Positions 1,378 through 45,904 of a stretch of DNA of 64,000 nt are shown one piece after another. Location: NCBI GenBank assembly GCA_964585475.1, contig CAZPDF010000006.1, forward strand, positions 8,531-72,530, given 5' to 3'. Below the pieces are notes generated by a model that was not told the DNA's origin, made no database searches, and saw only the letters and a list, made by a program, of their open reading frames with translations. The DNA comes from an uncultured Candidatus Saccharibacteria bacterium. GTDB lineage: Bacteria > Patescibacteriota > Minisyncoccia > Sungbacterales > HO2-52-23. Each line of letters begins with the position of its first letter. Within the stretch, counting starts at the first letter, position 1. The position numbers and the translations under genes were made by a program.

Positions 1378-1602
1378 AAAATTTCGGCCAATCTTTATTG
1401 CTGCCCCGAACTTCAGAAATAGTTTGGAGCTCACACTAATAGTTGAGTACATCTTAAACTTCGGGGGACTTGTCCTCCCACCTTTTTATTGTTTAGACCG
1501 CGTAGCCGGAATTTAGTTCAAACTGGCCCCTTTGAATGGACCATGATTTAGAAGTAGAAAAGGTGGGAGGATAAACAGCAGCCGAAATTTGGTGCGGGGT
1601 AA
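1378..1602 (+). ncRNA. Candidate structured RNA / nested palindromic element
   Basis: Outer helix ACCCCGGCACCAAAATTTCGGC (1381-1402) pairs with GCCGAAATTTGGTGCGGGGT (1581-1600). Inner helix GTCCTCCCACCTTTT (1470-1484) pairs with AAAAGGTGGGAGGAT (1558-1572). Branch helix CCCCGAACTTC/AACTTCGGGGG. A rho-independent terminator follows immediately. Confidence 0.25.
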
Positions 1603-2773: not shown

Positions 2774-4336
2774 TTAATCTGTTTGTGCTTTAGGTGCGTC
2801 TGGGTTTTCTGTCCCTATTTGTGTTTGGTGCGTGTCTGGATTTTGTTTTTTCTCCTCACGTATCATTCCAAGAGACATCCTATGCTCTTTCGGGTCAAGC
2901 AGAAGCACCTTGAAATCGTATTCCTGGCCAAGCTCAAGTTCTTCTTTCATTTTGGCTTCGGTGCCGAATTCGGAAATGTGGACAAGTCCCTGCACCCCGT
3001 TAGAAGTGTGCGAAGTTTTAACGTCGGTAACAGTAGATTCTTGAACAATTTTTTGATTGCCATCGGTGGGTGCTTCCGAACCAAGACTTTTAACGGGGTT
3101 AACCTGCGAATCAAATTCCGCAAATGCGCCAAAAGGATTGAATTTAGTCACTTTAGCCCTCACGTTATCGCCCTTTTTATACTTCTCCGCAAGTTTCACC
3201 CAAGGATCTTCTTTAAGAGCTTTTAGCGATAAGGAAACTTTGTCGCTCTGGATATTTATTATTTTTGCCTTGACTTTGTCGCCGGGTTTCAGAACGTCAC
3301 GCGGGTCTCCGATAAGCGTCCAGTCAATCTCAGAAATGTGAATCAGGCCCTCAAGTCCCGTCGCTTCGTCAAATTTCATAAATGCTCCGAAGTCAACCAC
3401 GCCAGTAATTTCTCCCTCAACCTCGTCACCAACTTTGTGTTTAGAAAGGGCCTCTCGCAGTGCGGCCTGATCCAGCTCTTTCTCGGTAAAAATGAGTTTA
3501 TTCTCGGTGACGTCCGCAAAAAGAATTTTTACCTTGAGGGTCTGCCCGACTAACTTTTGCAGTTCCTGAAAAACTTTCTCCTTATCTCCGCCTTCAACCC
3601 GCGGATAATTTTTCGCCGAAAGTTGGGAGGCGGGAAGAAAACCTTTAACATTTTTTAATTCAAGAATAAGTCCGCCGCGATTTGCTTCAAGCACCGGCAA
3701 TTCCAGTATCGCTCCTTCCTGCGTCATTTTTGCCAAATCAGTCCAGCGCCGTTCCTCTCCGGCCTCTTTGAGCGAGAGCTCGATATACCCCTCGTCGTTG
3801 TCCGGCAAAACCACTTTGGCGCTGACCGGATCGCCGGGGTTTAAATTTTTTATAATGTCCTGCGCCGCGTGATACTCTCTTCCGAAGACGAGTCCAATAC
3901 CGCGGTATCCTAAATCGATGAAAAGCCGCGTGCCCTTTTTCTCAAGCACGCTCCCCTCGACAATCTCACCGATCTTGGGAAGCGAAACTCCGGCAAAATT
4001 CCGCAGCATAGTTTCCATCGGATGCTTCCCTCGTAGTAGAACGTCGACTGGGTTGGCCTCGCGAACACCATCTGAAGATACGGCCGATGAACTAGGATCG
4101 AGCCGATCCTCCGATACACCCCTATTTTTATTGTCGCCTTCGGTGATAGTCGAAGTTTCACTACGGGGCTTCCCGTGAGGCTTCAAAACCGCGGTGGCTC
4201 TCTCGCCGTTTCCTTCGGTGTCGGCGCTGGAAGGAACTGTGTCCTGGGCCGTATCTACGCTATCGGCAGTTTCTTCCGGTATTTTTACTTCATCAGTCAT
4301 GAAGGAAAGTATAGGGGATAAAACTAAATTTGGCAA
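2774..4336 (-). CDS. S1 RNA-binding domain protein (multi-S1-repeat, ribosomal protein S1-like)
   Basis: Repeated S1-like blocks (GxV..I..fGaFv...g..GLvHiSEi ... GdkvkvkIl.id); C-terminal low-complexity tail. Confidence 0.7.
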   Translation of the reverse strand: MPNLVLSPILSFMTDEVKIPEETADSVDTAQDTVPSSADTEGNGERATAVLKPHGKPRSETSTITEGDNKNRGVSEDRLDPSSSAVSSDGVREANPVDVLLRGKHPMETMLRNFAGVSLPKIGEIVEGSVLEKKGTRLFIDLGYRGIGLVFGREYHAAQDIIKNLNPGDPVSAKVVLPDNDEGYIELSLKEAGEERRWTDLAKMTQEGAILELPVLEANRGGLILELKNVKGFLPASQLSAKNYPRVEGGDKEKVFQELQKLVGQTLKVKILFADVTENKLIFTEKELDQAALREALSKHKVGDEVEGEITGVVDFGAFMKFDEATGLEGLIHISEIDWTLIGDPRDVLKPGDKVKAKIINIQSDKVSLSLKALKEDPWVKLAEKYKKGDNVRAKVTKFNPFGAFAEFDSQVNPVKSLGSEAPTDGNQKIVQESTVTDVKTSHTSNGVQGLVHISEFGTEAKMKEELELGQEYDFKVLLLDPKEHRMSLGMIREEKKQNPDTHQTQIGTENPDAPKAQTD

Positions 4337-13432: not shown

Positions 13433-13582
13433 CAAAATTTGGAGATATAGTCGAACAAATTTTGGTAACAAAACCTTTACCCCGCCCCTACTCTACTTCG
13501 GAGTTGAATTATTTAAGACAAGGGTCAAGCTAAATTATCCTTGCAGTAATAGTAGGATTCAGTAGTAGAGTAGGGGCGGGGT
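13433..13582 (+). repeat. Family C element: conserved GGGCTTTGTCCAAAA...TTTTGGTAACAAAACC motif plus a long 19-bp-stem hairpin, copy 1
   Basis: Stem ACCCCGCCCCTACTCTACT ... AGTAGAGTAGGGGCGGGGT encloses a ~70-nt loop. The motif also occurs at 29274, 17714 and 46024 (minus). Confidence 0.6.
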
Positions 13583-17633: not shown

Positions 17634-17958
17634 GCCAAAACCTCGTTTTCAATGATCAAACCTCCGTTACTCTAGCAAATTACTTTTATATTGCAACTCA
17701 AAAGTTATCCCCAGGGCTTTGTCCAAAAATTCGAGCCTGTGGGTGAAGAATTTTTGGGAACAAAACCTAGGCCCCGCACAATTTTTGCCTTAGTGAATCA
17801 GTAGTGAACAGGTTTTACTTCATCGAAACGGTGCCCTCGCAGCGTGCGGTGGCCGAATAGGCCTACCCATATTGAGCGAAGCGCGCTGCCGTCGCTTTAC
17901 TTCGCAAAAATTGTGCGTGGGCACAAATAAAAAACCGCCGATGGGCGGACTGAAGATG

Positions 17959-29273: not shown

Positions 29274-29431
29274 GGGCTTTGTCCAAAAACCTTCCGTTAA
29301 CGGATGGTTTTTGGAAACAAAACCTTACCCCGCCCTTACTCTACTGCAGATTTTAATTGACAATTGGGTGGTTTAGCTGATATTACTATTTATCCCTTAC
29401 TACAAATCCAATAGTAGGGTAAGGGCGGGGT
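29274..29431 (+). repeat. Family C element, copy 2 (conserved motif plus long hairpin)
   Basis: GGGCTTTGTCCAAAAACCTTCCGTTAACGGATGGTTTTTGGAAACAAAACC, then stem ACCCCGCCCTTACTCTACT...AGTAGGGTAAGGGCGGGGT. Confidence 0.6.
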
Positions 29432-31834: not shown

Positions 31835-32287
31835 TCAGACTGTTTGACGTGGAACACTTGGTTTAGCTCTATAAATGAGACTATCTAGGTAAGGAAATTT
31901 TTTTAGCCACCAATCAAATTGAGTTCCTTTGTGCCCAAGAAGTTTATATCTACACATCTTCACAATCTTATTTTTTAGAGTGGGAATATCGCGGATTATT
32001 AACATTGCAAAATGTCTTCCTTGGTGGGTATACTCATATACCCAGTTATGAACTACTAAATAGTCTCTAATTGCTTCAATTAGCTCTTTATCCCGCACGT
32101 GCATTTTTAGAACAAAGGATGGAATCTTTTCTCCTGTACGGTAAGTATCTGCACCGAAATGTCCCTCTCCTTCAATCAAACCGAGTATGTAATCATCAGT
32201 TAACCTTTCCCTAATTTCATCCCTTGAGTAGTATGTTTCCTCCATTATTCCATCATAAAACTTGCCTTTATTTCTGCCCCTAGACAT
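31835..32287 (-). CDS. LAGLIDADG-type homing endonuclease-like protein (free-standing)
   Basis: YILGLIEGEGHFGADT motif (LAGLIDADG variant) near the N-terminus; ~150 aa single-motif size. Confidence 0.5.
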   Translation of the reverse strand: MSRGRNKGKFYDGIMEETYYSRDEIRERLTDDYILGLIEGEGHFGADTYRTGEKIPSFVLKMHVRDKELIEAIRDYLVVHNWVYEYTHQGRHFAMLIIRDIPTLKNKIVKMCRYKLLGHKGTQFDWWLKKFPYLDSLIYRAKPSVPRQTV

Positions 32288-32373: not shown

Positions 32374-32763
32374 ATGCCTTCTCAAAAAAGAAAATTTGGT
32401 GATATTGGGGAGAAATATGCAGAAGAGTTTTTAATCAAAAAAGATTATAGAATTCTGGAAAAGAACTATAGGATCAAAAATTTAGGGGAAATCGATATCG
32501 TTGCAGAAAAAAACGATAAGCTAATATTCTTTGAGGTCAAAACTAGAGATATAAAACATGAAACAGCGTTCCCAATCGGCTTTAGTATTAACGAGCGGAA
32601 GAGAAGAAATTTAGCACGGATATGTCAGCTTTATCTCACAGAGAAGCGCATTCCGTTTCAACGTAAATGGCAGGTAGACGCCATTTTCTTACTGGTTGAT
32701 TCTACTAATGGATCTAGCTCTATTGAGCACCTTGAGAATATTCTTTGGGAGCGATATTATTGA
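32374..32763 (+). CDS. YraN family (UPF0102) endonuclease
   Basis: GDIGEKYAEEFLIKKDYRILEKNYR...GEIDIVAEKNDKLIFFEVKTR, the PD-(D/E)xK core of UPF0102. Confidence 0.75.
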   Translation: MPSQKRKFGDIGEKYAEEFLIKKDYRILEKNYRIKNLGEIDIVAEKNDKLIFFEVKTRDIKHETAFPIGFSINERKRRNLARICQLYLTEKRIPFQRKWQVDAIFLLVDSTNGSSSIEHLENILWERYY

Positions 32764-33072
32764 CCCCGCACCTTTTGTGCGCTAGTTAATGGATATGCAC
32801 TACGTCTATATTCTTAAAAGTATATCGGCATCCATTCTGTACATAGGCCGTACCGACAATCTTGAAAGAAGAATGAGAGAGCATAACTCTGGGGGTACTC
32901 GCACCACGAGAAAATATATACCTTGGGTTATGGTATACTGCGAAGGCTATTTTGATATTGAAGACGCCAGGTCAAGGGAAAGAAGTTTGAAGCAGTTCGG
33001 AAGGGTGTATTCTCAACTTAAACGCCGTATTGCAAAAAGCCTTCTTAGCGCACAAAAGGTGCGGGGTTGAAG
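32759..33072 (+). mobile_element. GIY-YIG nuclease cassette bounded by 24-bp terminal inverted repeats (TTGACCCCGCACCTTTTGTGCGCT)
   Basis: Left IR 32759-32784 and right IR 33047-33072 are near-perfect reverse complements. The same IRs flank a gene-less element at 34611-34766. Confidence 0.7.
32789..33070 (+). CDS. GIY-YIG domain nuclease (93 aa)
   Basis: HYVYILKS...LYIGRTDNLERRMREHN...R...E GIY-YIG catalytic motifs. Confidence 0.8.
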   Translation: MDMHYVYILKSISASILYIGRTDNLERRMREHNSGGTRTTRKYIPWVMVYCEGYFDIEDARSRERSLKQFGRVYSQLKRRIAKSLLSAQKVRG

Positions 33073-33101
33073 TGTTCGACGTTTTACGTTTCATGGTGTT
33101 T

Positions 33102-33178
33102 CACGGGCCGTAGTATACCGGTCCCTAGGCCCTTTGGGCCGGGATCCCGGCGGCGAAGCCGCCTAGGGATAGTACGCC
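33102..33178 (+). pseudogene. Degenerate tRNA-Pro-related sequence (partial duplication with an internal palindromic insertion)
   Basis: CGGGCCGTAGTATACCGG matches the 5′ part of the downstream tRNA-Pro. It is followed by TCCCTAGG...CCTAGGGA inverted repeats enclosing T-loop and anticodon-loop-like fragments. Confidence 0.3.
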
Positions 33179-33204
33179 TGTTTCTTGCCAGCTTAAATTT
33201 TTAC

Positions 33205-33275
33205 CGGGGAGTAGTATACCGGCAGTACACATGCTTTGGGAGCATGAAGACCGGGTTCGATTCCCGGCTCCCCGA
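33205..33275 (+). tRNA. tRNA-Pro (anticodon TGG)
   Basis: CGGGGAG TA GTAT-ACCGGCA-GTAC A CATGC-TTTGGGA-GCATG AAGA CCGGGTTCGATTCCCGG CTCCCCG A. Confidence 0.7.
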
Positions 33276-33428
33276 ATTTTTAAATTTTGGCGGGTGAAGG
33301 AGCGCGGAGAACGGATTTAATTCTCCCGATTTTCTCTGCAACGTTGTTGCGGTTAGAAAATCGAGGATCCTCGATATCGTTTCAAAATCATAGATTTTGA
33401 CGATATCGGGACCAGCGGCCCGATTCTT

Positions 33429-33749
33429 ATGTCAAAGCAACAAGAATCATTAGGCGGCCAGGAGGAAGAATTGCATTACGAAATAATGGAAAACGGGGAT
33501 GTTATAGAAATTTCTGGAGGCGAAACCAGACTGCTTAAAATTGGGGCCCAAATCTATCAAAGACTTGGCGGTGAGGACTGGAAAGAGGATGAGGCAAGAA
33601 ATTTATTATCGCAAGGAACGGAGTTACGGCCACGGAGTATGGCAATTTCAGTCAATCGTGGCAAGTTATATGTTGACACAAGAAACTTCAGGGGAAATAT
33701 AGAACGCAAGAAGATGATATTGGAGACCGTAAAGAGCCTTCTTGAATAA
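33429..33749 (+). CDS. Hypothetical protein
   Basis: ORF only; acidic, no motifs. Confidence 0.3.
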   Translation: MSKQQESLGGQEEELHYEIMENGDVIEISGGETRLLKIGAQIYQRLGGEDWKEDEARNLLSQGTELRPRSMAISVNRGKLYVDTRNFRGNIERKKMILETVKSLLE

Positions 33750-33899
33750 ACTCGGGTTTTTATCGAAAAATGCCCAAAATTGTAGAATGTGCTGATATCG
33801 TTAGTGGCAATATCTTAGGTTTCCAGCTAAAAGCCGCGAGTTCGACTCTCAGCGGCCCGACATTATGAAAAATCCGCCACTTGTTGAATGGCGGACGCG

Positions 33900-34550
33900 T
33901 TAATGTGAGTGACGAGAAAGGCCCTTGATTGTCTGCGTGAAAAGAATGTATATGCCAATCGATAGCATCCAGAGCCCAATGGCGAATGAGATCAATGCGT
34001 CAATGTTTGGCCAGTGATATAGATAGATTATCGGAACTCCTACGAAAACGATAAGAAGCGACCCGATAAAATCAGACCAGAGTTCAAGCCATCTATAAAG
34101 ACGCGTCTGGTTCCTAACTTCAATTCCACGGCAAATCCATAGCTGCCAACCATTTCCCGCAAGTCCTAAAAACCCGCCAACCAGCATGTGTCTTAAGTTG
34201 ATGCTCTCCGGAGTGATAAGCCTATCCCATGCTTCGTAAAATATGAAGCAGGCAGCGATAACTATTATGACAAAGGACCAAATGCCGTATCTGGATCGAA
34301 CCACCTCCTCGCTTTGGGTATGTCGTCTTGACACCGCAATTTCAGTAAAAACCATCAAAAGGTATCCGGCGCCATGAACGGATGAATGCATTGCGTCGCT
34401 TAACACCGCAACGCTATTCGCCCACCAAGAAAAAAGTAATTGCAAAGCCCCGGTTCCCAGAGCAATCAGGAAAAGCTTTAAATTGCGCTCAATCTCGCAA
34501 ACACAGTTCGGGGGGCCGGTACAGTGCCGAACGCAGTGCTCTCGTGCCAC
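33900..34550 (-). CDS. Polytopic membrane protein (possible cation efflux/CDF-like, weak)
   Basis: Six predicted TM segments; SDAMHSSVHGAGY segment is reminiscent of the CDF metal-binding TM2. Confidence 0.35.
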   Translation of the reverse strand: MAREHCVRHCTGPPNCVCEIERNLKLFLIALGTGALQLLFSWWANSVAVLSDAMHSSVHGAGYLLMVFTEIAVSRRHTQSEEVVRSRYGIWSFVIIVIAACFIFYEAWDRLITPESINLRHMLVGGFLGLAGNGWQLWICRGIEVRNQTRLYRWLELWSDFIGSLLIVFVGVPIIYLYHWPNIDALISFAIGLWMLSIGIYILFTQTIKGLSRHSH

Positions 34551-34610
34551 TTTTTAACCCATTTTCGCGAGCTTTCTATATTCTAAAACAAATTATAAAA
34601 AAAGCAACCT

Positions 34611-34766
34611 CTTGACCCCGCACCTTTTGTGTACTGTATTATACCCATCACCTCATCAGTGTGCCGCATTCTGCGATTAACTCGGTAAAGAAGCAGTGCC
34701 GAATAGGTAGTAAAAATTTGGTGCTCGCGAGGTGGTCTGGTACACAAAAGGTGCGGGGTTGACAAC
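34611..34766. mobile_element. MITE-like non-autonomous derivative of the GIY-YIG element (same 24-bp terminal inverted repeats, no ORF)
   Basis: CTTGACCCCGCACCTTTTGTGTAC at 34611-34634 and GTACACAAAAGGTGCGGGGTTGACAA at 34740-34765. Confidence 0.65.
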
Positions 34767-34937
34767 CCACGGGCTTTTTGCTACTGTTGAGAAAACTTCT
34801 GGAAAGAGAAGGGCAACCGAGCACTCAATGGGTTGAGTGCTCGGCCAGTCTACTCCTAGGAAGAGTGTTTTTTAGCTCTTTCAAATAGTAGATTGGTAGC
34901 CCTTTTTTCTTTCCTCAAAATCACGGAGGAGAGTGGC

Positions 34938-36740
34938 ATGGCAGAGAAAGGTAAAGATGACTCTAGGGGACTCTCCAAGTTTCTTCCGATGACCGACGCG
35001 ACCTATCGGCGTCGTCTTACCGAGTACGAAGTTCAGGTTCAGGACCTTCAGACTTATATCAGATCTCTTGAAGTCGAAACCGTACACCTGCGAAAAAAGC
35101 TCGAAGAAGCTCCTAAGGAGTTTCTGGTGCTTGAGAATAAACTTCGCGAAGCGAACCGGCAACTAATACAGGCCTTTAACCAGAACGAGAAGCTGGTCAA
35201 CGCCCTCTACGAGTCCCGCGAGCAGATCCAGTCGCTCAAAGAAGAAGTGGACAAGCTTTGCGCTCCGCCTTCCACCTACGGCGTGTATCTGTCAGTCAAC
35301 GAGGACGGAACCGTAAACATTCTTGCTCAAGGACGAAAGGTAAAAGTAAACCTTCATCCTTCGATCAAGCCGGAGTCGCTGAAGCCCGGGCAGGAGCTCA
35401 TCCTGAACGAGGGCCTGAACGTCGTCGAGGCGGCGGGCTACGAGATCCAGGGCGACGTCGTCGTGCTGAAGGAGGTGCTGGACTCCGAGCGGGCGGTGGT
35501 CACCCTGCGGGCGGACGAGGACAAGGTGGGGATCATCGCCGACCCGCTGCGACCGCTGAAGCTGAAGGTCGGCGACCACATCCTGATGGACTCCAAGTCC
35601 GGCTACCTGCTCGAGAAGCTCCCCAAGAGCGAGGTCGAGGACCTGACGCTCGAAGAGGTGCCCGACATCTCCTACGAAGACATCGGCGGGCTCACGACCC
35701 AGATCGAGGCGATCCGCGACGCCGTGGAGCTCCCCTACCTCTACGCCGACTACTACAGGGAGCACAAGCTCACCCCGCCCAAGGGCGTCCTGCTCTACGG
35801 GCCGCCCGGCTGCGGCAAGACCATGATCGCCAAGGCGGTGGCCAACAATCTGGCGGAGAAGATCTCCGAGCAGCGCGGCGAGAAGATCAAGGGATACTTC
35901 CTGAACATCAAGGGGCCGGAGCTGCTGAACAAGTATGTGGGCGAGACCGAACGGAAGATCCGCGAGATTTTCATGAAGGCCAAGGAGAAGGCCGCCGAGG
36001 ACGTGCCGGTCATCGTGTTCTTCGACGAGATGGACGCCCTCTTCCGCACGCGGGGCTCCGGCATCTCCTCCGACGTGGAGACGACCATCGTGCCCCAGCT
36101 CCTGGCGGAGATCGACGGCGTCGAGGGTCTGAAGAACGTCATCGTGATCGGGGCCTCCAACCGGCAGGACTTGATTGATCCTGCAATTCTTCGTCCCGGG
36201 CGTCTGGATATTAAGATCAAGATTTTGCGGCCGGATAAAGATGCGGCAGTCGATATCTTCGACAAATACCTCACGATCGAAGTCCCTCTTCATGACTCGG
36301 AGATGCGGCAGGACGGCGGTGAGAGAGTTGATACTCTCAAGCGCCTCATCGCCTCGACCGTTGAGGAGATGTATGCGCTTACTGAAGAAAACAGGTTCCT
36401 CGAGGTAACGTATGCCAACGGCGATAAGGAAGTTCTTTACTTCAAGGATTTCTCCTCCGGCGCCATGATTGAATCAATCGTGCGTCGTGCCAAGAAACTC
36501 GCGCTCAAGCGCTACATCCAGACGAGCCAGAAGGGCATCGTGCTTGACGATCTACTGGCTGCAGTTCGCGAAGAATTCAAGGAGAACGAAGATCTTCCGA
36601 ATACGACCAACCCGGACGACTGGGCTAAGATCGCCGGCAAGAAGGGCGAGCGGATTGTATACGTGAAGCCCTTGATGGGAGAACCGAAAGACAAGCAGCG
36701 GACCGTGGAACAGGTGATCACTACCGGACAGTACCTGTAG
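34938..36740 (+). CDS. Proteasome-associated AAA+ ATPase ARC/Mpa homolog (GGAGGAG RBS; the ORF extends upstream to a TTG at 34893)
   Basis: N-terminal coiled coil, inter-domain OB region, Walker A GPPGCGKT, Walker [11 protein letters not shown], and C-terminal ...TTGQYL (the GQYL proteasome-docking motif of Mpa/ARC). Confidence 0.85.
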
Positions 36741-45771: not shown

Positions 45772-45904
45772 GTATTCACCCTCCCACCAAAAAGCTACGG
45801 GTGTCAAACCGGGATGAGGTGCATAAGCCCGCAGGACAATAAGCCAAATGTTGCGGCTGTACCCCCTCAAATTTGGTGGGAGGGTTAAGTATATAGCTTA
45901 TTTT

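Follow-up and report, generated by a model that had tools for sequence, protein, structure and literature searches.

The nuclease gene cassette at 32760-33070 of the window (the whole 64-kb stretch of DNA analyzed) and the gene-less hairpin element downstream of it belong, in the reading that we favor with fair confidence, to a CPR-type variant, new in its architecture, of the system formed by Ssn nucleases and Ssn-related motifs (SRMs), and one that is, or formerly was, transposable. The architecture is not without precedent, small GIY-YIG genes flanked by hairpin repeats being known from the work of Chenal et al. (Nat Commun 2025; PMC11893778). In that study, Ssn (CDD cd10448), a single-domain GIY-YIG nuclease of ~94 amino acids, was shown to recognize a short DNA hairpin carrying a conserved 5′ GTC and 3′ C, and to cut single-stranded DNA just upstream of it. 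The gene is flanked by such hairpins, the NTS/SRM repeats, and the likeness of hairpin-flanked GIY-YIG genes to an insertion sequence was remarked upon. A literature survey on GIY-YIG nucleases in connection with transposable elements or Patescibacteria retrieved this paper alone as relevant.

The cassette is bounded by two fully complementary arms, recovered by a repeat search of the window, and by a TTGA direct repeat (Table 1). The first-pass annotation had described the nuclease ORF as bracketed by 24-bp terminal inverted repeats (TIRs). The perfect inverted repeat is real, though it is 22 bp long and the outer TTGA is direct; the earlier coordinates of the cassette and its arms were off by 1-2 nt. 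Treating TTGA as part of the inverted repeat was rejected, as it is direct in 41 elements of the family described below and inverted in only ~3. When the region 32750-33080 was folded as single-stranded DNA, the arms paired with one another (z-score -5.5). Folding of each arm as its own mini-hairpin, in the style of canonical SRMs, was dismissed on inspection, with just 3-5 bp of pairing that was not conserved among copies. A 17-nt arm core, ACCCCGCACCTTTTGTG, occurs four times in the window, at 32763 and 34615 on the plus strand and at 33051 and 34743 on the minus strand; shuffled sequences held 0.16 matches on average and none of 100 shuffles reached four. The left TTGA contains the stop codon (32761-32763) of the YraN/UPF0102 gene that lies upstream. 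On the other side, the right arm and its flanking TTGA encode the final seven codons of the nuclease ORF (SAQKVRG) and the stop, and this C-terminal tail shifts with the arm sequence in orthologous cassettes (SAEKVRG, SEIKARG). The right flank reads TTGAAG, not TTGAC, and shows no convincing -10 box.

The ORF at 32789-33070 matched the Pfam GIY-YIG model PF01541 with an E-value of 6e-17 over residues 3-69 of 93, the domain thus spanning nearly the whole protein. Translation probably starts at the second ATG (32795), because M3 is nearly invariant in homologues. The catalytic residues are intact: G20, R28, H32, Y50, E52, R63 and E64 are invariant across 64 homologues. The protein is 41-42% identical to GIY-YIG proteins of Rhizobium and Azospirillum (E-values 1e-13 and 2e-12) whose genes are flanked by canonical SRMs, CGTCATCCCCGCGAAGGCGGGGATCCAG. 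The best PDB matches were UPF0213 proteins, with scores of only 27 and 24 bits, and a search for small GIY-YIG proteins returned 5,721 representative clusters at E-values up to 1e-3. Pfam and NCBIfam gave GIY-YIG-related matches only for the cassette protein, and no HUH (Y1) transposase was found with either; the nuclease is the sole ORF of the cassette, which contains no recognized transposase. The group I intron endonuclease model TIGR01453 did not match the window protein, and three homologues matched it far below the cutoff. Homing endonucleases such as I-TevI and the Seg proteins share the GIY-YIG catalytic domain and a selfish behavior, but they have a C-terminal DNA-binding domain, sit in introns or between phage genes, spread by double-strand-break repair into a cognate allele, and lack TIRs, target-site duplications (TSDs) and gene-less copies. 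Assignment of the window protein to this group was rejected, since it has only 91-93 residues, nearly all within the domain, and no additional DNA-binding domain.

The gene-less element, both TTGA copies included, occupies 34612-34762 (151 bp) and not 34611-34766 (156 bp) as annotated at first. Its 20-nt arms are 100% complementary and pair in the fold of the single strand (z-score -3.3). It had been taken for a MITE derivative of the cassette. The two indeed have the same ends, but what they have in common is limited to the TTGA flank and the 17-nt core of the arms; past position 17 the arms differ (CGCTA versus TAC). We therefore describe it as a second element with the same ends and not as a demonstrable deletion derivative. 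The TTGACC…TATTAT arrangement, described earlier as promoter-like and outward-reading, in fact points inward; its spacer is 19 nt and the promoter scan did not call it. The outward promoter-like site is instead TTGACA/TACTGT, which has its -35 box rebuilt by the right TTGA and points toward the ARC/Mpa gene at 34938; its -10 hexamer is weak (3/6 matches) and the consensus scan did not call it. The ARC ATPase could not serve as a synteny anchor, its nearest relatives being in Rokubacteria/NC10.

Table 1. Features of the cassette and of the gene-less element (window coordinates).
Feature	Position	Strand	Basis or remark
Left TTGA direct repeat of the cassette, putative target-site duplication	32760..32763	+	Read in sequence
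Cassette left arm (hairpin/TIR), ACCCCGCACCTTTTGTGCGCTA	32763..32784	+	22 nt, complementary at every position to 33046-33067
Single-domain GIY-YIG nuclease gene, Ssn-like	32795..33070	+	91 aa if started at the conserved Met, 93 aa if at ATG 32789
Cassette right arm (hairpin/TIR), TAGCGCACAAAAGGTGCGGGGT	33046..33067	+	Repeat search
Right TTGA direct repeat of the cassette; gives the stop codon TGA of the nuclease gene	33067..33070	+	Read in sequence
Left TTGA of the gene-less element	34612..34615	+	Read in sequence
Gene-less hairpin element, 145 bp	34615..34759	+	20-bp arms 34615-34634 / 34740-34759, 105-nt loop
Right TTGA rebuilding a -35-like TTGACA (34759-34764), 17-nt spacer, -10-like TACTGT (34782-34787)	34759..34787	+	Read in sequence

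A search for further copies, suggested in the first-pass annotation, was fruitful. The same arms were found in at least ~90 other elements, mostly from CPR/Patescibacteria MAGs and metagenomes. A genome scan gave 21 loci, nearly all of them inverted pairs 45-135 bp apart, mostly in MAGs of Saccharibacteria, Uhrbacteria and other Patescibacteria; loci were picked for carrying an arm sequence identical over 17-20 nt, and MAGs labeled as taxa outside CPR may owe that label to binning errors. At least 65 further paired elements came from the metagenome scan, while 22 of the metagenome matches listed correspond to one unrelated conserved gene with a chance 17-mer. The family comprises gene-less members of 34-156 bp and cassettes of ~305 bp with orthologous GIY-YIG genes, which are the only protein-coding members among the matches listed. 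These orthologues (47-76% identity) lie within the same type of inverted repeat, each in a different gene neighborhood. Arms of this type enclose the gene in each of no fewer than ten GIY-YIG lineages, with identities as low as 41-47%. One cassette (P0014) occupies the final codons of an MgtC gene.

Comparison of the elements indicates that arm pairing is under selection. Positions 18-20 of the arms are complementary in 50 of 72 elements, through 15 different triplets, as compared to a mean of 8.3 when arms were randomly re-paired. Position 21 pairs at chance level (10/50). The stem is 20 bp long, with 17 sequence-specific and three free positions. Compensatory changes were also observed between cassette lineages, from TTTTGTG/CACAAAA to TTTTCTG/CAGAAAA, and in ACCCCGCGCCTTAATTTCAC/GTGAAATTAAGGCGCGGGGT. 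Covariation at positions 18-20 points to base pairing, and not to protein recognition of two separate ends.

Several features suggest that these units have moved. A check for target-site duplications, also suggested at first, revealed matching 4-bp flanks in 48 of 72 non-redundant elements (TTGA/TCAA in 41, TAAA/TTTA in six, TCCA in one) and in 35 of the 43 elements with clean arms. The matching flanks have the form TNNA, with four different sequences plus a nested case, in which one element is inserted in the arm of another and TGAA is duplicated. The remaining 24 elements have no matching flank, many of them being one substitution or a 1-nt shift away, and a subgroup of ~110-bp elements has different conserved flanks. 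Copies from the same genome were found at different loci and in both orientations relative to the flank. We read the duplications, the nesting and the dispersed copies in two orientations as marks of past transposition. The description of the pair as an active or recently active transposable element is borne out as regards past movement across the family; the search for an empty site or a presence/absence polymorphism returned none, so that current activity is unproven. An empty-site pattern built for P0014 had no match in metagenomes. Exact look-ups of the YraN and cation-efflux proteins returned the same filled locus plus contigs breaking inside an arm. Predicted empty junctions compared all-against-all over the collected loci gave self-matches only. 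The databases contain no close relatives of the host.

The consensus of the insertion site is GGG-TTGA-C, and a promoter of the form TTGAC-N16-18-TAnnnT is present at 34 of 40 TTGA-flanked elements, whereas TAnnnT was found at 11% of 744 control TTGAC sites, which lie mostly in coding sequence. With respect to the same controls, a perfect TATAAT was observed in 10/40 elements versus 0.8%, and -10 sequences matching TATAAT at five or more of six positions were enriched (Fisher p = 1e-12). An ORF starts within 250 nt downstream of 28 of 35 elements, as compared to 11 of 34 in the opposite direction. This association may reflect the survival of harmless insertions and not targeting. The target, GGGTTGAC, resembles the right junction of the element itself, GCGGGGTTGAC.

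With the Ssn/SRM system, the locus shares a single-domain GIY-YIG protein of ~90 residues, a gene bracketed by inverted copies of a repeat that is also present without a gene elsewhere, and a stem base of the form GTCA-(A/T)-CCCCGC…GCGGGG-(T/A)-C. On its minus strand, the gene-less element reads GTCA-ACCCCGC…GCGGGGT-C, so that the conserved 5′ GTC and 3′ C are present, on one strand only. Among the 41 TTGA-type elements, the G of GTC is kept in 36 and the 3′ C in all 41; in the window cassette, a T replaces that G. Canonical SRMs differ in being self-contained hairpins of 20-50 nt with 3-5-nt loops, at least one of which lies on either side of the gene (PMC11893778), whereas here the arms are not self-complementary and pair with each other, leaving the gene in the loop. 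Tolerance of a split hairpin by Ssn, which still cuts when the hairpin is divided between two oligonucleotides and for which only single-stranded DNA is a substrate (PMC11893778), fits a stem made by two distant arms. The SRM pattern HGTCWYN(0-2)YYVSBRHN(0-5)WNVSBRGN(0-2)RNCYNB had no match in the 64-kb window, as against five and four matches at the Rhizobium and Azospirillum control loci. This is because the pattern allows loops of 0-5 nt only and needs Y after GTCW, while in the window the loops measure 105-261 nt and GTCA is followed by A. With the strict pattern unmatched, it is the common stem base and the protein homology that support a relationship to SRMs.

In the variant that we propose, the stem is lengthened to 20 bp and the loop is open-ended (0 to ~270 nt), and the gene of the nuclease lies within the loop of the very hairpin that the enzyme presumably recognizes. 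Other hairpins built on this stem, but lacking a gene, are scattered in the genome, the one in the window being an example. Such hairpin units would act, or have acted, as small transposable elements inserting into TNNA sites, overwhelmingly (G)GG-TTGA-C, and leaving a 4-bp direct repeat behind. Since TTGAC is the sigma-70 -35 box and its duplication rebuilds a -35 beside the -10, insertions are seen almost exclusively directly upstream of intact promoters. The GIY-YIG protein would be the mobilizing enzyme: it may bind or cut its own hairpin as single-stranded DNA, and this cut may start the mobilization of the cassette in cis and of the gene-less copies in trans. Joining would have to be supplied by host replication or repair, because GIY-YIG enzymes are hydrolytic. 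To our knowledge, no strand-joining activity has been described for GIY-YIG nucleases, and such a nuclease alone therefore cannot be a transposase. The sole characterized relatives, the Ssn proteins, are hydrolytic single-stranded DNA nucleases with no known joining activity in the account of PMC11893778. A stronger version, which we advance tentatively as a possibility, is that these are true transposons, encoding nothing but a ~91-aa Ssn-type GIY-YIG single-stranded DNA nuclease. The elements would travel as single-stranded hairpins and insert specifically at the -35 box (GGG-TTGA-C) of sigma-70 promoters, where the 4-bp duplication would keep the promoter intact.

A rather unlikely alternative is a domesticated, non-mobile Ssn/SRM system having a host function, with rare spread of hairpins by recombination or by template switching at TTGA microhomology. 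The function could be to restrict or modulate incoming single-stranded DNA in natural transformation, as in Neisseria, or to insulate or terminate transcription upstream of promoters. The authors who described SsnA of N. meningitidis, a modulator of transformation, themselves suggest domestication (PMC11893778). Orthologous insertions are kept between diverged relatives (L015/L089, L105/L129, L082/L149), with arms better conserved than the left flank. The likeness of target and right junction is what homology-guided copying predicts, and the missing empty sites agree with immobility. However, microhomology to a donor flanked by TTGA would hardly yield independent TAAA, TTTA, TCCA and TGAA duplications, and the occurrence of both orientations within a genome, the nested insertion and the presence of cassettes in unrelated neighborhoods, lineage by lineage, argue against it.

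The marks of insertion could also be ascribed to an ordinary MITE family, moved by a conventional transposase encoded elsewhere, with the GIY-YIG gene as a passenger or an independent selfish gene. TIRs are common to coding and non-coding copies and a TSD of fixed length (4 bp) is present, which together with the small size of the gene-less copies makes a classic MITE signature. Several DDE families typically produce a TSD of 4 bp, and the lack of joining chemistry in GIY-YIG enzymes would be explained. We nevertheless consider this reading very improbable. The GIY-YIG lineages are repeatedly embedded in such arms and the arms co-vary with the lineage; ~190 loci contained neither a longer element (0.7-6 kb) sharing these ends nor a transposase or any other enzyme gene; and the covariation in the stem points to base pairing. 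In addition, hairpins of their own likewise flank the distant proteobacterial homologues (PMC11893778). The Correia elements of Neisseria, which are MITEs, are likewise short, TIR-bounded, gene-less intergenic units with a short TSD that interact with promoters, but their target duplication is TA and their presumed ancestor a DDE insertion sequence, whereas here the only coding partner is a ~91-aa nuclease and the insertion point is the -35 box itself.

Two systems based on HUH enzymes also resemble the proposed Ssn/SRM variant. REPIN/RAYT has a single-copy nuclease-type gene between inverted copies of the repeat on which it presumably acts, with gene-less hairpin-forming doublets dispersed between genes and long-term, partly vertical persistence. 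It relies on an HUH tyrosine transesterase instead of a GIY-YIG hydrolase, and the 4-bp flank duplications and defined target are particular to the present family. In the 'peel and paste' movement of IS200/IS605, hairpin ends are recognized in single-stranded DNA and insertion is directed to a specific short sequence of four or five nucleotides that resembles the element's own cleaved end. There, however, each end has a subterminal hairpin, in contrast to the one hairpin formed here from both ends; TIRs and target duplication are lacking, and the enzyme is an HUH transposase, absent here. attC sites and invertons were rejected on inspection, since the flanks are unlike attC core sites and identical arms across many genomes are unlike either.

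The least probable reading, a structured RNA or regulatory DNA (bidirectional terminator, RNase III site or mRNA stabilizer) whose repetition is secondary, could draw on the strong RNA hairpin that a perfect 20-22-bp stem would form, on the intergenic position just upstream of promoters and on the many right flanks that run on as TTGACTTTT, partly U-rich, but no Rfam family was found at either element (gathering scores over the whole window; E-values up to 1 over 32700-34900), loop length (0-270 nt) and sequence are unconstrained to the point that a protein gene can fill the loop, flank duplications and nesting are DNA-level events, and the constant link with a nuclease gene is left unexplained.

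If they are indeed transposons encoding only a nuclease, these elements would represent a new enzymatic class of prokaryotic mobile element. The signs of movement (varied flank duplications, nesting, both orientations) and the location of the gene inside the hairpin go a step past the Ssn study, whose Results, Discussion and two Methods sections do not mention target duplications, nesting or a -35-box location (PMC11893778). A stem defined by 17 specific and three free base pairs, whatever the loop, suggests that the target of the nuclease could be supplied in trans. Promoters of uncultured CPR genomes could be annotated from the strict placement of the elements at -35 boxes, a placement that also raises the question of how an enzyme acting on single-stranded DNA finds promoters. 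Overall, the proposed variant of the Ssn/SRM system would give a concrete, testable role to the uncharacterized small GIY-YIG proteins of CPR bacteria.

The first-pass annotation had described a GIY-YIG gene bracketed by terminal inverted repeats, with a gene-less partner carrying the same ends. This structure was confirmed by a repeat search in the window, by core counts and by the domain assignment of the ORF, with small corrections to repeat lengths and coordinates. A 17-nt core, ACCCCGCACCTTTTGTG, is common to both elements and occurs exactly four times in the 64 kb; shuffled sequences contained a mean of 0.16 copies, and none of 100 shuffles contained four. Sequence shared by the two elements is limited to this core and TTGA. 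The outermost TTGA is a direct, not an inverted, repeat at each end of both elements. At the cassette, the upstream UPF0102/YraN gene has its stop codon in the left-hand TTGA, and the right-hand one supplies that of the nuclease gene, whose second ATG (32795) corresponds to the conserved Met of the homologues. Upon folding as single-stranded DNA, the arms pair in both elements (z-scores of -3.3 for the gene-less element and -5.5 for the cassette).

Features of the studied region and further hairpins, in window coordinates
Feature	Position	Size	Remarks
Cassette	32760-33070		gene-bearing hairpin element
Cassette arms	32763-32784 / 33046-33067	22 nt	perfect inverted pair
ORF in cassette	32789-33070		GIY-YIG domain protein (PF01541, E 6e-17)
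Gene-less element	34615-34759		34612-34762 with both TTGA
Gene-less element arms	34615-34634 / 34740-34759	20 nt	perfectly inverted
TTGACA at gene-less element	34759-34764		directed toward ARC/Mpa gene
Hairpin	34814-34847	15-bp stem	TGGCCGAGCACTCAACCCATTGAGTGCTCGGTTG, minus strand; terminator-like in scan; between putative promoter and ARC start codon
ARC/Mpa proteasome-type ATPase	34938-36740		90-94% identical to Rokubacteria/NC10 MAG proteins
LAGLIDADG endonuclease ORF	31835-32287	150 aa	minus strand; free-standing; PF00961, E 1e-6; between PNPOx-like and YraN genes, about 500 bp from cassette
tRNA-Pro-like segment	33099-33121	23 nt	just downstream of cassette; 83% resemblance to 5' part of adjacent tRNA-Pro gene
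GC-rich hairpin	33124-33170		follows tRNA-Pro-like segment
tRNA/tmRNA 3'-end-like fragment	33815-33851		Rfam tmRNA, E 0.31
Further hairpin element	13479-13582		related but different arms
Further hairpin element	29327-29431		related but different arms
Further hairpin element	17772-17920		related but different arms
Further hairpin element	1470-1574		related but different arms
Further hairpin element	45775-45888		related but different arms

Counting copies of the terminal repeats in other genomes, as had been proposed at first pass, gave 21 loci when one genome per species was scanned with the pattern T[TC][GA]ACCCCGCACCTTTTGTG. With the partner arm sought allowing mismatches, nearly all were inverted pairs, 45-135 bp apart. 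Their hosts are mostly MAGs of Saccharibacteria, Uhrbacteria and other Patescibacteria (CPR), with several loci within one Saccharibacteria genome. One Uhrbacteria locus (L003) is a second cassette, of 309 bp, whose GIY-YIG gene is 64.5% identical. A metagenome scan using the bare 17-mer gave at least 120 matches and added at least 65 paired elements, at least four complete cassettes and one truncated cassette; 22 matches were rejected, as they lay in a single unrelated gene where the 17-mer occurs by chance. Among the matches listed, the non-redundant set comprises 72 elements of 34-156 bp, plus cassettes of 302-309 bp. Its minimal members (scan loci L134 805-838, L099 236-272 and L071 2674-2707) are bare palindromes of 34-37 bp, made of two abutting arms, with TTGA duplicated. 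The arms alone seem sufficient, and the loops, nuclease gene included, look like cargo. Under a rival explanation, the family would be a conventional MITE whose transposase went unseen; among the loci found there was no element of 0.7-6 kb with the family ends, and none encoded an enzyme other than the GIY-YIG nuclease.

Two clean elements with identical arms carry labels outside the CPR (L014, a Bdellovibrionales MAG, on a 122-kb contig; L008, a Dehalococcoidales MAG). They represent either a binning error or cross-phylum transfer; one paper includes GIY-YIG genes in its list of transfers from Patescibacteria to other bacteria. Independent assemblies of the same organism (L173, ending at 512, and L023, ending at 3510) break exactly within an arm of the cassette or gene-less element, as expected if the arm is repeated elsewhere in the genome or community.

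Past the core, arm complementarity covers exactly three further positions in most elements. Positions 18-20 are fully paired in 50 of the 72, with 15 different triplets, whereas random re-pairing of arms gave 8.3 such elements on average and 16 at most; pairing at position 21 is at chance level (10/50). This covariation indicates that pairing within the stem is selected for. Were a protein to bind the two ends separately, complementarity would not be expected to persist at variable positions. The pattern thus suggests either a hairpin formed by single-stranded nucleic acid or copying of one arm from the other. An RNA-level element is a further, less probable rival. In orthologous elements of about 75 bp (L105 1687-1760 and L129 1364-1437; L082 and L149), the loop contains a GC-rich inner stem-loop with compensatory substitutions (GCCCGCC…GGTGGGC vs GTCCGCC…GGCGGAC), followed by AAAAACGA; this loop may have a structure of its own.

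The arms are also found around the homologous genes. Among 64 homologues, those nearest the window protein have the C-terminus (A)(Q/E)KVRG, a translation of the right arm, and some gene calls begin with the translated left arm. In the DNA of six homologue lineages and in the metagenome cassettes, each gene lies between long inverted arms with the outer part (A/T)CCC(C)GC(A)CC, and the neighbours differ in every case (hisS/DHFR, MgtC, FtsH/tRNA, others). Arm changes between lineages are compensatory (TTTTCTGCGCT/AGCGCAGAAAA and ACCCCGCGCCTTAATTTCAC/GTGAAATTAAGGCGCGGGGT). The nuclease tail varies along with the arms (SAEKVRG, SEIKARG) and is thus a by-product of the DNA. By these sequence comparisons, nuclease gene and arms belong together. 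In the wider protein family, which is large, a cutoff of E 1e-3 takes in 5,721 representative clusters and one of 1e-10 takes in 278.

Target-site duplications were sought at the ends. When each end is read as a tetranucleotide, made of three bases of flank and the A or T that ends the element, the two sides agree in 48 of 72 elements; among the 43 whose arms have at most one mismatch, 35 agree. Matching flanks are TTGA/TCAA (41), TAAA/TTTA (6) and TCCA (1); the elements with non-TTGA flanks are independent, with unrelated loops and flanks. At locus L005, a small element is nested in the left arm of a larger one with TGAA duplicated around the insert; the partner arm allows the interrupted sequence to be restored (GTGAAC). 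Two genomes carry related elements in opposite orientations relative to the flank, at different loci (L004/L020, L012/L013), and the L003 nuclease gene is oriented opposite to that of the window cassette. At P0014, a homologous cassette locus, an MgtC gene has received the cassette in its last codons, which alters the C-terminus of the protein. Together, duplications, nesting, orientations and the MgtC case indicate real insertions with a 4-bp TNNA duplication; a 2-bp duplication by elements ending in A…T would formally yield the same sequence. These marks stand against the rival of a domesticated, non-mobile system. On its side, no empty site was found: the predicted P0014 junction was absent from the metagenome collection, none of the collected loci spanned a predicted empty junction, and exact look-ups of the two proteins flanking the window cassette returned only the same filled locus or contigs ending within an arm. 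The host has no close database relatives, the best named match of its ClpC-like protein being a Parcubacteria MAG at 40% identity.

The flank consensus of the 41 TTGA-type elements is (G)GG-TTGA-C(A/T), so that the right junction reads TTGAC(A/T). A TAnnnT hexamer follows 16-18 nt past it in 34 of 40 cases, with a perfect TATAAT in 10, as compared to 11% and 0.8% at 744 other TTGAC sites of the same loci, mostly in coding sequence (Fisher p = 1e-12 for at least five of six matches to TATAAT). A long ORF starts less than 250 nt downstream of the right end in 28 of 35 elements (median 75 nt), and outward from the opposite end in 11 of 34. Cassettes follow the same rule. The right flank of the window cassette (TTGAAG…) has no convincing promoter. 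By sequence, the elements are placed exactly on the -35 box of putative sigma-70-type promoters, and the duplication rebuilds the box beside the -10. This reflects either targeting or survival of the sole harmless insertions in gene-dense genomes. The promoter remark of the first pass has to be recast: in the window, the promoter-like site is TTGACA-17 nt-TACTGT at the right end of the gene-less element; its -10 is weak and gave no call in a consensus promoter scan. The downstream hairpin may be a 5'-UTR structure.

The gene-less hairpin lies about 175 bp upstream of the ARC/Mpa start codon. The ATPase DNA (35001-36000) has 59% GC vs about 48% for the window, and no relative of the contig's ClpC-like housekeeping protein exceeds 53%; a divergent CPR-like genome seems to have acquired this pupylation ATPase recently, by horizontal transfer. 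The LAGLIDADG ORF, the two hairpin elements, tRNA-Val and tRNA-Pro share a 4-kb stretch that resembles a hotspot for small selfish genes, and 33099-33180 and 33815-33851 could be left over from tRNA genes or attachment sites. The further window hairpins (105-150 bp) have the arms ACCCCGCCC[C/T]TACTCTACT and CCCCGCACAATTTTTGC. Three (13479, 29327 and 17772) have TTTTGGnAACAAAACCT before them and GCTC, TCTC or GCAC after; this flank pair recurs around elements of ~110 bp at metagenome loci L053, L079 and L093. By their flanks, these form a second hairpin family, without TTGA duplication.

Ssn proteins are single-domain GIY-YIG nucleases of about 94 aa (CDD cd10448; Chenal et al. 2025, PMC11893778). 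They cut only ssDNA, on one strand, just upstream of the short hairpin (the NTS/SRM repeat) that they bind, and they still cut when this hairpin is assembled from two oligos. Cleavage depends most on the three bases 5' of the palindrome, and binding on the C that directly follows it on the 3' side. SRMs lie on both sides of 42% of homologous genes; the authors likened NTS-ssnA-NTS to an insertion sequence and compared it with REP/RAYT, their Results and Discussion reporting no evidence of movement (PMC11893778). The window protein matches GIY-YIG genes on Rhizobium and Azospirillum plasmids (BLASTP, 41-42% identity, E 1e-13 and 2e-12), which are flanked by canonical SRMs, CGTCATCCCCGCGAAGGCGGGGATCCAG; its PDB relatives, with low scores, are UPF0213 proteins and SLX1. 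The minus strand of the window element reads GTCA-A-CCCCGC[ACCTTTTGTGNNN … loop … N'N'N'CACAAAAGGT]GCGGGG-T-C. The 5' GTCA, the CCCCGC/GCGGGG stem base and the 3' C are identical to those of SRMs, whereas the stem has 13 additional bp and the loop is open-ended. The strict published pattern had no match in the window because its loops are limited to 0-5 nt.

Ssn, REPIN/RAYT and IS200/IS605 suggest by analogy that the element would fold while single-stranded, at replication forks or during DNA uptake, and the nuclease would recognise the stem foot on the GTCA strand and nick there. The site preference would be explained by the target (GTCAA-CCC, GTCA strand) resembling the 5' junction of the element itself (GTCAA-CCCC). 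Such a nuclease-driven scheme does not account for the joining step, as GIY-YIG enzymes are hydrolytic. Overall, the locus is probably a new architectural variant of the Ssn/SRM system, in which the presumed recognition hairpin encloses the nuclease gene, and hairpin units both with and without a gene have transposed. Given this explanation, past mobility of the hairpin units is highly probable, and whether the nuclease was required for it is an even question. Of the earlier interpretation, the mobile element with a gene-less partner is supported by flank duplications, nesting and orientations, and the GIY-YIG protein as mobilising enzyme is plausible by analogy.

The system is of a kind described in 2025 for Ssn and is not categorically new. 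Literature searches returned no description of GIY-YIG-bearing hairpin elements in CPR, SRM target duplications or -35-box insertion. The gene-in-hairpin layout, the target duplications and the -35-box placement go beyond the Results and Discussion of the Ssn paper and those search results.
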